IMG/VR virus record: IMGVR_UViG_3300029305_001183 | Location: 1,273 to 65,272 of that record | DNA: 64,000 bases | Reading direction: 5' to 3' (one strand) | DNA from: a virus | Taxonomy: Duplodnaviria; Caudoviricetes | Shown: positions 369-59,841 of the stretch, piece by piece | Layout of the letters: each line of letters begins with the position of its first letter | Position numbering within the stretch: position 1 is the first letter of the stretch | The notes under the pieces: model-generated | What the model was told of the DNA's origin: nothing | Databases searched by the model: none | The model's input: only the letters and a program-made list of their open reading frames with translations | Translations under genes and position numbers: made by a program

Positions 369-393
369 TCATCCTTTCAATCATTTTGTATTG

Positions 394-606
394 TTAATCT
401 TCTACTTTGATAATCTTGTATTTGCCACAGTTACACTCTGTTTCCTCACCTCTTGCGAGAGCGTCTCTAAATGATTGACAAATACACTTCGTAGATTGGT
501 CCCATATAATTGCACAAGGACAGTATCCTTTTGTTTCTTGGAGTTGTCTATTTACCTCAGCGATAAGTTCACGATCATCACCAAGTACAATTTTATATTT
601 AGCCAT
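394..606 (-). CDS. ferredoxin:thioredoxin reductase catalytic-subunit-like protein
   Basis: GYCPC...KCIC...ECNCGKY resembles the FTR CPC/CPC/CHC triad; start MAKYK overlaps the nrdG stop (TAATG). Confidence 0.75.
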   Translation of the reverse strand: MAKYKIVLGDDRELIAEVNRQLQETKGYCPCAIIWDQSTKCICQSFRDALARGEETECNCGKYKIIKVED

Positions 607-1082
607 TATGATATCCTTTCTGCCCATTGGTTGTCACTAGCTAGTTTAATCCCCAATACTTCGTCGTAATGTGGCTGTTGGTTTGGAACAAAACGACCAA
701 ACTTAACAATAATATTTGAAAACTCGGTCAGTCGTTTGATTTTGTCTTGAATTTCATTTTTATGAAATCCAGTATATACCACTATATCATCTTGGTTATA
801 TTGTCTAAAACATTTAATAAAATTAAAAAGTTGTTCAAATTCATCAAAATTTTCCAACCCACCAAAAACAATAGCAGAGGTAATTGGGTTTGTTTTATAC
901 CTTTGTACCAAAGTATCAATTGTCACCATTTTTGTTTGTTCTAAGGCCAATCCCTTATTAATACACAAACAGGTGTTATTTTCTTTATCACATTTGAAAT
1001 CACAAATTGTATTAGAAACGAACATAGACGGTTTTTTATATTGTAAAAAACTTTCATCTTCAATCCCTTTTGTTTTAAACAT
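606..1082 (-). CDS. nrdG: anaerobic ribonucleotide reductase activase domain (radical SAM)
   Basis: MFKTKGIEDESFLQYKKPSMF..CDFKC..C..C, FGGLE, VVYTGF, KFGRF, LASDNQ; directly downstream of nrdD. Confidence 0.85.
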   Translation of the reverse strand: MFKTKGIEDESFLQYKKPSMFVSNTICDFKCDKENNTCLCINKGLALEQTKMVTIDTLVQRYKTNPITSAIVFGGLENFDEFEQLFNFIKCFRQYNQDDIVVYTGFHKNEIQDKIKRLTEFSNIIVKFGRFVPNQQPHYDEVLGIKLASDNQWAERIS

Positions 1083-1943
1083 TAGTAATTTTTCTGGGAT
1101 AATTTCTTCATCGTAACGAATTTCAATCAATGGAATATTGTGTTTTAAACAATATTCTCGCTTTAATTTATCTCTTTCAATTGATTCTTGAAATTCTTCA
1201 TCTGATAAATTAAAGGTGTTTTCAAAATGTTGTATTCCTTGATACTCAATTAAATATTGTGGAATATTTTCTTTATTCAAAACGCAAAAATCAAACCTTA
1301 AATACTGTCCGTATTTACTCTTTAGATCTTTAAATGTGTATTCCTTCTCAAATTCAACATGATACTCTTTTAAAATTTTTGCGATTTGCTTCTCCCCATA
1401 TGAAGATATACATCCACAAGACTTAGTATGTCCGATTTTAAGCTTATTGGTTGATACGACCGTTTTAGCTCCACAATTTAAGCACTCACAATTCCAATAA
1501 TGTTGTTTTAATTTATATCGTTCCATATTTTCAGAAATCACCTTTAAATACCCAAAGATTTGTCCGGTTAGATCTTCATACGGTCTTGGTCTACAACCAC
1601 AAGTTAATATTTTACCAGATGATAAATGATTTAAATCAACCTCTTTTTCATTGCCGCATTCACACCTACATAGCATTCTTCTACAATTGTGTGTTGGTGT
1701 CACTTCTTTTATTATTGTTAGTTTGCCAAAAGTGTATCCAGTCCAATCTTCTTTATATGGACGCATACACCCACAAGTAGTTGTATTGCCGCTACGTAAA
1801 TTATCGCCTGTTATTATGGTAGTATTTCCACATTTACATTGACACAACCAGCGAGACTTATGCGTCCCTTTTGGGGACACATAATCTTCTTCTCGCGAGA
1901 CAACAATCAGTTTACCGAATTGTCTGCCTATTAAATCTTGCAT
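606..1943 (-). CDS. in-frame fusion: putative homing endonuclease (3 Cys-rich repeats + PD-(D/E)XK/Vsr-like domain) joined to NrdG
   Basis: Three DLxGxxFGxL...CxCxCG...L.SG..xSCGC repeats, then RFDF...LIEYQGIQH, then NrdG with no stop; ATG at 1943 has SD AGGTGA. Confidence 0.8.
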   Translation of the reverse strand: MQDLIGRQFGKLIVVSREEDYVSPKGTHKSRWLCQCKCGNTTIITGDNLRSGNTTTCGCMRPYKEDWTGYTFGKLTIIKEVTPTHNCRRMLCRCECGNEKEVDLNHLSSGKILTCGCRPRPYEDLTGQIFGYLKVISENMERYKLKQHYWNCECLNCGAKTVVSTNKLKIGHTKSCGCISSYGEKQIAKILKEYHVEFEKEYTFKDLKSKYGQYLRFDFCVLNKENIPQYLIEYQGIQHFENTFNLSDEEFQESIERDKLKREYCLKHNIPLIEIRYDEEIIPEKLLMFKTKGIEDESFLQYKKPSMFVSNTICDFKCDKENNTCLCINKGLALEQTKMVTIDTLVQRYKTNPITSAIVFGGLENFDEFEQLFNFIKCFRQYNQDDIVVYTGFHKNEIQDKIKRLTEFSNIIVKFGRFVPNQQPHYDEVLGIKLASDNQWAERIS

Positions 1944-1944
1944 A

Positions 1945-58095: not shown

Positions 58096-58587
58096 TTAAA
58101 CTTCCTCCTTAAAAATATTTACCATATCAATTTCCGTCTTACTAATGCCGACACCACAATCAAGCATAAAGTTTAAGAACAAATGCAGATCATCAATATC
58201 GAAATTTTGCAATTCTGCATACTGCAATACATTATCGAGCAGTCTCAAAAACTCTACGCTAACATTGAAGTTATCGTGTATATAATCCATAAATTGCTGT
58301 TTGTTCATCGCACCTTTCTTGTACTTCGGATTAATAATTCCCCATTCGTTTTTCACATCAACGCACTCAATTGCATCTTCAGTTTCTTCACATTCTTCTA
58401 CTCTAATGTCAATTTCATACACCTTAGGTGCATCTACGAAGAACAACTTATCATTTCTGCATTGCAATTTTACAAACAGTTCATATGCCTCCTCGTAAGT
58501 ATCAAAGTCCCCAAATCCAACCTCGTAATCAATAGCCTCAAGGTCTATATCATAGCCAAGCCCACATACATAATATCTTGTTTTCAT
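58096..58587 (-). CDS. two-module hypothetical protein
   Basis: Internal SD-ATG at 58308. Confidence 0.6.
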   Translation of the reverse strand: MKTRYYVCGLGYDIDLEAIDYEVGFGDFDTYEEAYELFVKLQCRNDKLFFVDAPKVYEIDIRVEECEETEDAIECVDVKNEWGIINPKYKKGAMNKQQFMDYIHDNFNVSVEFLRLLDNVLQYAELQNFDIDDLHLFLNFMLDCGVGISKTEIDMVNIFKEEV

Positions 58588-58823
58588 TATTCATCGTCCT
58601 CCTCTTCATCTTCTTCGCCTTCAAGTAATTCAACTTCCACGCCGAATATAGTACCATCGGCATTGAGGTATGCTTCCCCATAATCCACGAATACAGAATT
58701 ACCATTCCATTCCGTCTTAATGTCAAGATCCATTCCCATTTCCTCTGCTTCTTCTCTGTTTTCTGCCTCGACTTCCATTTCGAAGCTGATTGTGTAAAGA
58801 CCTGTTACTTTGTACTTGTTCAT
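58587..58823 (-). CDS. small acidic protein
   Basis: EVEAENREEAEE motif. Confidence 0.6.
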   Translation of the reverse strand: MNKYKVTGLYTISFEMEVEAENREEAEEMGMDLDIKTEWNGNSVFVDYGEAYLNADGTIFGVEVELLEGEEDEEEDDE

Positions 58824-58986
58824 AATGTTGCCTCCTTAAACCAAATTGTTATTTTTCTTCATTTCTTCTGCGTATTCCATAAGCATCTCAACAACCTCTG
58901 CAACGGTTGTATCATTTGCATCTGCAATCTTTTCGAGTGCCTCTGCCTCAATGTCATATATGGTAATGTTTGTCATATTTACCTCC

Positions 58987-59775
58987 TTAAACTAATTCGT
59001 ACAATGTACCATGTCCACAAGATTTACACCATTCACACCTTGAATCAATAGCGTCCATCTCATCAACACTGTGCGCAAGTCTTGCTTGATTTCCTTCGCG
59101 ACTTTCAATTGCCCACAAGCAATGTTCGCAAACCCACAGGCTCTCTCTGTGTCCGCAGTTTTCTCCGTAAGGAATAGAATCCCATTCATCATAATCCAAG
59201 CCATAATTCACACAAACACTATCAACCATATACTCTTCAAGGCACATATCTGGATCGTCATTTTCGTGCCAATTTTCGTAGTATCTATCGAGTGCTTTCC
59301 AAATCTCATCCTTGTCAATGTTACTACCCTTGGAGAACTTGATTTTGAGCGTTCTCTCGAAGCACGCTACATCATATTCAACCTCTCTCGGAAGTATCAT
59401 TCCACCATCTGTCATATCAAACTCCTTTACTTCGTTGTACCACTTAAGCAAACTCTTTGCGATACGCTCATAATCATCGTTCGGTGCAATGCTCAAACTC
59501 ATATCCCATACATCGCCATCTTCTTCATATGGAAAGTTAAGCCAATCAAAGTCTGTCTGCATATAGTCGCTTGTCCAAACCTTGATACCAACATTTATGC
59601 CCCAATCGGGATCGTCTTTTGCTTGGATAACATCTTTCCTCGGCTCTTTGCCATACCCACCAGACCAACCTACAAAGATTGCAAGGTGGTCATCTAGTTG
59701 ATAACGACAACACCCTTCTTGGTTTTCCACCAACCATTCAACGGACTCTTTGATAAACTGTGCAATTTTACTCAT
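58987..59775 (-). CDS. multi-module hypothetical protein
   Basis: ORF track, SD. Confidence 0.65.
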   Translation of the reverse strand: MSKIAQFIKESVEWLVENQEGCCRYQLDDHLAIFVGWSGGYGKEPRKDVIQAKDDPDWGINVGIKVWTSDYMQTDFDWLNFPYEEDGDVWDMSLSIAPNDDYERIAKSLLKWYNEVKEFDMTDGGMILPREVEYDVACFERTLKIKFSKGSNIDKDEIWKALDRYYENWHENDDPDMCLEEYMVDSVCVNYGLDYDEWDSIPYGENCGHRESLWVCEHCLWAIESREGNQARLAHSVDEMDAIDSRCEWCKSCGHGTLYELV

Positions 59776-59841
59776 ATTACTTTTCCTCCTTTTGGAGTGG
59801 GCTTTTCGCCCACCCCTATTATAATCATTTTGCTGTGTTAA

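Follow-up and report, generated by a model that had tools for sequence, protein, structure and literature searches.

Repressors of the MrpR/SroF family have the fold of an integrase, do not recombine DNA and bind long asymmetric boxes as monomers (PMC10516654; bioRxiv 10.1101/2025.11.27.690993). These integrase-shaped repressors were characterised recently, and only in the Bacillus phages SPbeta and phi3T. Here we describe an array of short, similarly oriented sequence boxes, and a candidate repressor of this family encoded among them, in a 64,000-base stretch of viral DNA (bases 1273-65272 of the 65,272-base virus contig IMGVR_UViG_3300029305_001183; CheckV completeness 38%). We call this whole stretch the window, and positions below refer to it unless another genome is named.

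In SPbeta, MrpR binds a repeated element, SPBRE, detected as 10 peaks by chromatin affinity precipitation sequencing (ChAP-seq), and represses PaimR and PyosX (PMC10516654). SroF of phi3T is a monomer that nearly encircles the DNA and reads 24 of the 26 bp of an asymmetric box (bioRxiv 10.1101/2025.11.27.690993). In the published SroF system, SroD/YopP lies upstream, and sar (yopT in SPbeta) lies one open reading frame (ORF) downstream, behind a LexA box (PMC10516654; bioRxiv 10.1101/2025.11.27.690993). The two known Sar proteins are less than 20% identical to each other (bioRxiv 10.1101/2025.11.27.690993). A comparable use of many small sites has been described for cluster A mycobacteriophages. 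There, the repressors are monomers that act on more than 20 asymmetric 13-bp sites, located at promoters (operators) and in short intergenic gaps (stoperators); the stoperators are oriented with transcription, and repression is lost when a site is reversed (PMC9283540).

We conclude that the boxes in the window are probably DNA sites of a phage-encoded repressor, most likely the MrpR/SroF-type protein encoded at 45098..46039, which would bind them, repress transcription and, at some of them, form a roadblock. Judged from its sequence, the phage is large, temperate and distantly SPbeta-like, and belongs to an uncultured gut clade in which its relatives measure about 165-175 kb.

A repeated one-way box in the window

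The word AATCATTTTG occurs exactly 24 times in the 64,000 bases, 23 times on the plus strand and once on the minus strand. In 100 dinucleotide-preserving shuffles, it occurred 0.63 times on average and at most 3 times. A sequence-only reading of this DNA had listed 26 starts of the word, and all proved real: we located the 23 exact plus-strand copies and three variants with one mismatch, AATCATTCTG at 26703 and AATCATTTCG at 35726 and 55153. Two copies lie beyond that list, an inverted one at 46086-46095 and a degenerate one, ACACAACAAAATAACT, at 37692-37707 behind a perfect promoter. Since the minus strand carries every long ORF and all 10 tRNA genes, the boxes appear as ACAAAATGATT when read with transcription. 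When the 26 copies were aligned, about 19 nucleotides (nt) proved informative, (T)(T)(A)ACA(A/C)(A/T)ACAAAATGATT(A/G) on the coding (minus) strand; CAAAATGATT is a stretch within this box.

We built a matrix from the same 26 copies, for which it is circular, and scanned with a threshold of 14 bits or more. The window contained 26 matches on the coding strand. The opposite strand had 2, of which that at 46078-46096 is strong and that at 20257 weak. Block shuffling, repeated 200 times, left a mean of 0.24 matches and a maximum of 2 with the two strands combined. A rough gene call makes about 90% of the contig coding, yet 25 of the 26 boxes fall between genes or overlap a stop codon; the exception, box 7057, lies within a doubtful ORF of 105 amino acids (aa).

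Boxes at strong promoters

A search of the coding strand for TTGACA-N16-18-TATAAT, with no more than one mismatch allowed, revealed 11 matches, of which 9 were intergenic and 2 were inside ORFs. Eight of the nine intergenic strong sigma-A promoters carry a box and the ninth bears a degenerate one, while both ORF-internal matches (-10 ends at 3626 and 40119) are without a box. The placement that the sequence-only reading had described, past the -10 hexamer or in the -35/-10 spacer, was seen at these eight promoters.

Two boxes, 19921 and 48245, lie in the spacer (offsets -20 and -15), and six (11722, 14791, 15696, 22156, 27092 and 44541) lie 8-16 nt past the -10; all are on the minus strand. 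The promoter of the tRNA array, TTGACA-17-TATAAT, has two boxes (19854..19938), one in the spacer at 19920-19938 and another 46 nt after the -10 at 19854-19872. The second spacer box (48244-48262) is in the promoter of the operon that ends with the recombinase and repressor genes, TTGACA-16-TATAAT, with TGTAAA repeats upstream at 48284-48311 (whole region, 48240..48311). Past the -10, boxes follow at 10 nt in TTGACA-16-TATAAT before a MetK-like gene (11721..11739), at 10 nt in TTGACA-17-TATAAT before an 85-aa ORF and then the NAD ligase gene (14790..14808), and at 16 nt in TTGACA-17-TATAAT of the amidase gene (15695..15713). The remaining three lie 10 nt after the -10 of TTGACA-16-TATAAT (22155..22173), 8 nt after that of TTGACA-17-TATACT (27091..27109) and 16 nt after that of TTGACA-17-TATTAT (44540..44558). 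The degenerate box ACACAACAAAATAACT (37692..37707, minus strand), which scores below the matrix threshold, follows a perfect TTGACA-17-TATAAT (-10 end 37712) at a distance of 4 nt from the -10.

Three boxes (52792, 55153 and 59823) are ambiguous, with a weak or partial promoter context on the minus strand. At 59822..59840, TTGCCC-17-TATAAT lies 8 nt upstream, and the 3′ end of the box also merges into TATAAT. The variant box CGAAATGATT at 55152..55170 likewise merges into TATAAT at its 3′ end and is without a good -35. The box at 52791..52809 overlaps the upstream stop codon and has TGATATAAT downstream.

A candidate repressor of the MrpR/SroF family

The sequence-only reading had named the product of 45098..46075 as an MrpR-like inactive recombinase. 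The likeness to MrpR was borne out in three ways. A phmmer search of the PDB (177,635 distinct sequences, E up to 10) returned only four distinct matches, three of them MrpR/YopR and the fourth 9rd5. The matches to SPbeta MrpR/YopR (8a0a, 8bj6 and 8bjv) had E values of about 5e-6 and covered residues 38-172. When the PDB was searched with a profile built from 24 homologues, 9rd5 matched with E 6e-9 and MrpR with E 8.6e-8 over positions 27-275 (249 positions), and no other PDB protein scored better than E 0.77. Finally, PHROG 5830 matched the protein over its full length (E 7.7e-18). With SPbeta YopR it shares 25% identity across 154 residues. Our local Pfam copy did not report MrpR_C_cat; in precomputed annotation, PF22823 (MrpR_C_cat) is given for the window's protein and for all 120 homologues listed, out of a family of roughly 570 members. 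The predicted product of 45098..46039 is thus a specific, though distant, MrpR/SroF relative, with similarity over both domains.

The entry 9rd5 is deposited as 'core-binding domain-containing protein'. DNA is read in phi3T SroF by residues K233, F234, H237 and R238 (bioRxiv 10.1101/2025.11.27.690993), and in the profile alignment a K-F-x-x-H-R pattern of 9rd5 lies two residues off these positions. Because the preprint names this pattern, we infer that 9rd5 is phi3T SroF. Aligned with the phi3T recognition helix is the basic stretch ERRYRFxxRR of the window's family. No other part of the family is as well conserved, and this holds even in the alignment spanning 29-74% identity. Inspection by eye revealed neither HxxR nor LGH in the candidate repressor, and the box-I arginine is replaced by lysine in most homologues.

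The 325-aa start of the sequence-only reading did not hold up, as its ATG at 46075 falls within a -10 hexamer. The GTG at 46039, which is the gene callers' start and gives 313 aa, is likelier and lies nine bases past an AAGGAG Shine-Dalgarno sequence. We sought close relatives among cultured phages in 50,697 phage records, using megablast with 44000-52000 and tblastn with the repressor; neither gave a match.

The repressor promoter and its neighbours

The promoter of the repressor gene lies inside a head-to-head pair of boxes (46074..46118, minus strand). Its -35, TTGCAT, is at 46097-46102 and its -10, TATAAT, at 46074-46079, with a 17-nt spacer; the arms of the pair are a co-oriented box at 46100-46118 and an inverted box at 46078-46096 in the spacer. 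This architecture was present in 8 of 8 relatives examined, whose MrpR-like proteins are 48-87% identical to that of the window. It consists of ACAAAATGAT, 6-8 bases that include the -35 hexamer, and ATCATTTTGT, whose distance to TATAAT does not vary. The arms are 6-8 bp apart, and in some relatives the left one is degenerate. On the other, non-coding strand (46085-46130, plus), TTGACA precedes the inverted box and ATTAAT follows 18 nt after it; these may form a promoter, divergent or antisense, that faces the recombinase gene.

That recombinase gene (46114..47088, minus strand) lies directly upstream of the repressor gene, in the position of SroD/YopP, and encodes a canonical tyrosine recombinase (Pfam Phage_integrase, E 4.1e-38). 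Its translation shows the R, HxxR and LGH...Y motifs, and it matches SPbeta YopP by BLASTP with E 1e-4. Comparison with the MrpR-like family gave no profile similarity (hhalign probability 0.2). One promoter precedes the recombinase gene, three small ORFs and the repressor gene, and the repressor gene also has its own promoter. At the orthologous operon promoter of seven relatives, a box-like copy lies over the -35, not in the spacer as in the window; the site shifts, yet it stays on the core promoter. We found no YopQ/SroE-like gene between the recombinase and repressor genes, and the sroA-F layout was not matched.

Downstream, the order is the repressor gene with its hairpin, a box, a 30-aa hydrophobic ORF, an SOS-box promoter and an 85-aa ORF. 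The 30-aa ORF (44957-45049, minus strand) is strongly hydrophobic, has a good Shine-Dalgarno sequence and fills the one-ORF gap from the repressor gene to the SOS-box promoter. This LexA-type promoter, TTGCAC-17-TATAAT (44912..44940, minus strand), has CGAATGGATGTTCG in its spacer at 44921-44934, one mismatch from CGAAC-N4-GTTCG. An SOS-type box with at most one mismatch to CGAAC-N4-GTTCG is in the same promoter spacer of 6 of 8 relatives. The 85-aa ORF (44613..44870, minus strand) is, by position only, a candidate Sar-type antirepressor. All 8 relatives have it downstream of their repressor gene, with identities of 38-93%. It had no sequence match in the PDB, and homology to Sar or YopT was undetectable by sequence. 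A consensus scan for terminators and promoters over 40-60 kb gained little.

The sequence-only reading had inferred that this protein is the cognate repressor of the boxes. The family match, the synteny of the module and the box pair on the gene's own promoter all support that assignment, and suggest that the protein binds the boxes.

Boxes at gene junctions

Half of the boxes, 13 of 26, sit without a promoter at short gene junctions, where the best resemblance to a promoter has 3-4 mismatches. In ten copies the upstream stop codon lies inside the box, either as the TAA of TTAACA or as the last T followed by AA or GA, and in 13 of the 26 the next start codon is 10-17 nt past the box with a Shine-Dalgarno sequence between. 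The sequence-only reading had counted gene junctions among repressor positions. Placement at junctions was confirmed; these are not classical operator positions, and a stoperator model, in which elongation is blocked, fits them better.

The junction boxes, all on the minus strand, vary in what surrounds them. The upstream stop is the TAA within TTAACA at 44288..44306 and at 378..396, where the start codon comes 10 nt past the box. At 50724..50742 the last T of the box plus AA forms the stop of a C5-methylase gene. Other boxes lie over the stop of a DHH-family gene, before a GIY-YIG endonuclease gene (27788..27806), over the stop of a GIY-YIG endonuclease gene, before an AAA_24 gene (41900..41918), and over the upstream stop before a NUMOD4 endonuclease gene (10232..10250). 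The box at 37467..37485 contains a stop and is followed by a Shine-Dalgarno sequence, which comes immediately after the box at 52027..52045. The box at 10893..10911 precedes the N-terminal piece of a C5-methylase. Two junction copies are variants: CAGAATGATT at 26702..26720 precedes the gene for DNA polymerase III alpha, and CGAAATGATT at 35725..35743 precedes a primase-like gene, with the same variant at the orthologous place in G001, a relative described below. The box at 7056..7074, in the doubtful 105-aa ORF, is 27 nt before an HD-domain gene. Finally, the box at 45062..45080 comes directly past the hairpin of the repressor gene and abuts the Shine-Dalgarno sequence of the 30-aa hydrophobic ORF. 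A box is found behind this hairpin in 7 of 8 relatives, though the following gene differs.

The genes that the sequence-only reading had placed under control of the boxes (the tRNA array, NAD ligase, a MetK-like gene, C5 methylases, an amidase and replication genes) were identified as named. Further genes behind boxes are those for DNA polymerase III alpha and for primase-like, helicase-like and AAA_24 proteins.

A C5 cytosine methylase is apparently split over 7337-10881 (minus strand). Its N-terminal piece, 10231-10881, corresponds to profile positions 1-113; then come the NUMOD4 endonuclease ORF, 9632-10219, between the methylase pieces, and a 756-aa ORF with later methylase positions. Besides the box before the NUMOD4 ORF, boxes flank the GIY-YIG genes 27173-27775 and 41899-42759. 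The DNA polymerase III alpha gene (22314-26708, minus strand) is interrupted, at about residues 153-556, by an intein that bears a LAGLIDADG endonuclease domain.

Conservation of the box among relatives

We examined relatives at 15 viral loci and on one contig of a metagenome-assembled genome (MAG), with repressors 48-88% identical to that of the window. Among the 11 relatives' loci tested, 9 have the exact box core as their most frequent 10-mer. It has four copies in L031, a locus of the 48% group, and none in the short locus L030. For the distant homologues P0123, P0130 and P0134 (48%, 40% and 34% identity), no neighbourhoods were found in viral contigs.

One relative, G001, is complete at 172,719 bases and has 36 matrix matches. 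Of these, 35 follow local transcription, in both divergent arms: 8 minus-strand boxes at 64.9-92.5 kb among minus-strand genes, and 27 plus-strand boxes at 106.8-168.3 kb among plus-strand genes. The sole inverted box is at the repressor promoter. Since the boxes switch strand with the two arms, their orientation tracks local transcription. Sixteen of the 36 are at strong promoters. Bases 1-60,000, in which all genes are on the minus strand, contain zero boxes; from its position, we take this 60 kb to be the late module.

The switch between the divergent arms of G001 (92.5-93.4 kb; 12480-13400 in locus L013) has GGTTATAACCTT runs and GATATA-type repeats. It also contains about 600 bases of G-rich TGGGG-type repeats with no ORF. 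This may be an origin or end region. An ORF with a cREC_REC receiver domain lies near it, at 11286-11612 of L013.

The MAG contig, L032 (JBGVEC010000203.1, 165,582 bases), comes from a fecal genome labelled Paludibacteraceae and encodes the same repressor, at 56% identity, along with boxes and the SOS-box module. It is as long as complete phage genomes of this clade. Strong Shine-Dalgarno sequences and TTGACA/TATAAT promoters point to Firmicutes, probably those of the gut, as hosts, so the contig may be mis-binned.

A second element at the strong promoters

At 8 strong promoters, TGTAAA-N5-TGTAAA lies exactly 15 bp upstream of the -35, often with AAT before it. These doublets are at 11786-11802, 14856-14872, 19956-19972, 22220-22236, 27155-27171, 37757-37773, 44612-44628 and 48284-48311, on the minus strand. 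Across the whole window, 7 copies are exact and another 2 have one mismatch. Relatives keep the doublet at the orthologous promoters, and G001 has it at 10 promoters. A placement near -60 is suggestive of an activator site or UP-like element. On the other strand the doublet reads TTTACA-N5-TTTACA, which is reminiscent of the direct-repeat sites of OmpR/PhoB-type response regulators.

Other explanations for the boxes

Several observations weigh against the MrpR-like protein as reader of the boxes. Its Pfam MrpR_N_CB match, at 22.1 bits, is below the curated cut-off of 27. All 12 good SPBRE copies of SPbeta are in promoter regions, and this family precedent does not cover the junction copies that have no promoter. 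We did not find an AimR-like gene in the window, where only the 373-aa ORF, the sole one of AimR size, was compared; it was similar neither to SPbeta AimR nor to solved structures. Because the contig is only 38% complete, the arbitrium module may lie elsewhere. The box core is unchanged between phages with repressors only 48-59% identical, and co-variation of protein and site was not found. An unchanging box would equally suit a conserved or host factor; the conserved ERRYRFxxRR stretch fits an unchanged DNA specificity. In addition, the TGTAAA doublet could be the repressor's real target, and the fixed placement of boxes just before Shine-Dalgarno sequences would also suit a signal in RNA, as would the overlap of ten junction copies with an upstream stop.

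One alternative is that the boxes belong to another factor, such as the neighbouring tyrosine recombinase, another phage regulator or a conserved host protein, and that the MrpR-like protein reads something else, for example the TGTAAA doublet. We consider this unlikely. In its favour, the box stays invariant down to 48% repressor identity, compared with published SroF types that have different boxes at 30% (bioRxiv 10.1101/2025.11.27.690993), and the doublet, at 8 strong promoters, resembles the SPbeta SPBRE count in its copy number of about 9 and its promoter-only location. The palindrome between the recombinase and repressor genes also has the general shape of a recombinase core site. However, its arm gap varies from 6 to 8 bp at a fixed distance to the -10, which suits independent monomer sites better, and a centre near -60 makes the doublet's position that of an activator or UP element, not a repressor. 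The basic helix of the repressor family is as conserved as the box, and boxes on the promoter of the MrpR-like gene are the autoregulatory placement expected of its own operator.

A linear RNA element of 5′ untranslated regions and intercistronic gaps, placed before the Shine-Dalgarno sequence and recognised by a translational regulator, an RNase or the ribosome, would explain why 26 of 28 copies are in the sense of transcription and why start codons follow at 10-17 nt in half of the 26. The targets of T4 RegA or RegB are a precedent for such a signal, which would also cover promoter-proximal and promoter-less copies alike, as well as the invariance across the clade. Nevertheless, the spacer copies (19921 and 48245) and those over a -35 are not transcribed from those promoters, the two copies at the tRNA promoter have no translation to control, and an RNA signal would make no sense of the inverted copy that relatives keep at the repressor promoter. 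Tight packing against the Shine-Dalgarno sequence is to be expected in gaps of 30-40 nt, and Rfam matches in the window were tRNAs only. An RNA signal is, in our judgement, improbable. About as improbable is that the boxes act positively, as promoters or activator sites in phage-specific transcription of early or middle genes, like the compact co-oriented promoters of phage-encoded RNA polymerases. The boxes are compact and co-oriented, precede Shine-Dalgarno sequences at junctions and are absent from the G001 late module, and the genes past the hairpin at 45.1 kb need a promoter where none is visible. Searches of G000 and G001 found no YonO-like protein, T7-type RNA_pol or Sigma70_r2; these are weak tests, the T7-type search having been silent in controls. 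Two Sigma70_r4_2 matches in G001 were rejected as sigma factors, being generic helix-turn-helix (HTH) proteins. The fixed placement over the +1 or in the spacers of perfect sigma-A promoters has the geometry of a repressor.

Very improbable, finally, are recombination sites or mosaic joints, that is, integron-type cassettes or short homologies for gene shuffling. A tyrosine recombinase gene is next door, different genes follow box 45063 among relatives, and of 44 ends of homology blocks between the window and G001, 6 lie no more than 15 nt from a box, where random positions would give 0.56. Block ends, however, occur at 4 of 19 box junctions and 15 of 98 other junctions (p = 0.51), and we rejected mosaic joints because the enrichment is not above that of other gene junctions. 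An integron-like cassette array was rejected as well: there are no attC-type repeats, the 19-nt box has no internal dyad or attC-like inverted repeat, and essential replication genes lie between the copies, which direct repeats of an active site would delete. A DNA-binding repressor is what the promoter-overlapping, inverted and tRNA-promoter boxes argue for, and the boxes on the MrpR-like gene's own promoter argue that the MrpR-like protein is the binder.

Proposed mechanism and implications

If the MrpR-like protein does bind the boxes, those over a -35, in a spacer or covering +1 to +25 of strong sigma-A promoters would block initiation, and the head-to-head pair on the repressor's own promoter would confer negative autoregulation. 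Bound by the same protein, the promoter-less junction boxes would stop read-through RNA polymerase, including polymerase that leaves the repressor operon, which is co-directional with the lytic genes. The box behind the repressor-gene hairpin would be well placed to stop read-through into those genes. We propose that the junction copies are polar roadblocks, stoperators in the manner of cluster A mycobacteriophages, because the array has all the sequence-level features of stoperators and published SroF is likewise a monomer. Polar action would explain the near-uniform orientation of the boxes along transcription. Induction could proceed through the SOS-box-controlled 85-aa gene (44613..44870), acting as a Sar-type antirepressor.

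More tentatively, and with less than even confidence, we suggest that an integrase-fold repressor independently evolved the stoperator strategy, in which a one-way monomer box on promoters and about a dozen junctions silences the early arm, with a specificity shared across the clade. If so, phages of about 165-175 kb would share one DNA specificity, and hence cross-immunity, despite repressors diverged to 48% and Sar-like proteins to 38%, and the induction partners would differ among cross-immune phages. An unchanged box across diverged repressors bears on the evolution of immunity groups. Were the junction copies to stop elongating polymerase, two unrelated repressor folds would have converged on one genome-wide silencing design, and the array would offer a simple system for studying how a monomer blocks RNA polymerase in one orientation. 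If the boxes are ordinary operators only, the array is a routine extension of a known system. The window shows the SroF/MrpR module, comprising the repressor, recombinase, SOS-controlled small gene and multi-copy one-way box, in an uncultured gut clade distant from the Bacillus phages.

Comparison with known systems

By replicative helicase, the nearest cultured phages are phiCD211 and phiCDIF1296T of Clostridioides difficile, which are SPbeta-like and have large genomes of similar build; the helicase identity is only about 28%, and the comparison is by helicase alone.

The likeness to the MrpR/SroF systems extends from protein to sites to gene order. The repressor is of the same family, has a similar length (313-325 aa) and presumably an integrase-like type of fold. 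The box is repeated, asymmetric and AT-rich, includes an A-tract and is co-oriented with the genes; copies lie in promoter spacers, just past the -10 and beside Shine-Dalgarno sequences, and late genes are box-free. A tyrosine recombinase gene is upstream, and an SOS-box promoter with a small gene is one ORF downstream.

The sites themselves differ. From SPbeta we derived the SPBRE consensus ATACAAA(A/T)AATATGTAT, which the window box does not fit; the two share only the 9-mer AATACAAAA. The 12 SPBRE copies with at most two mismatches are all in promoter regions of SPbeta, and roughly half occupy the spacer of a TAGACA-17-TATAAT-type promoter, whereas half of the window's copies have no promoter. 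The window's array is also two to three times denser than that of SPbeta, with 26 copies in 64 kb, and 36 in the 172.7 kb of G001, compared with about 12 in 134 kb. Unlike the SPbeta and SroF systems, the window has a palindromic pair on a separate repressor promoter, no YopQ/SroE-like gene between the recombinase and repressor genes, and no AimR-like gene seen within its bounds.

In the arrangement of its sites, the window resembles cluster A, as represented by L5 gp71 and the TipsytheTRex repressor: both have more than 20 asymmetric sites, at promoters and in short gaps, oriented with transcription (PMC9283540). A search of the available papers found none that joins stoperators with SPbeta. 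The cluster A repressors combine an HTH with a stoperator domain, unlike the integrase-fold family of the window's candidate repressor; their sites are 13 bp long, compared with about 19, and their hosts are of another group (PMC9283540). Cluster A repressors have been shown to be monomers and to block elongation in a polar manner (PMC9283540), where the window's repressor would be a monomer by analogy and its polar block is predicted. Because its candidate repressor belongs to the integrase-fold family, the array may work like stoperators without being a member of the cluster A system.

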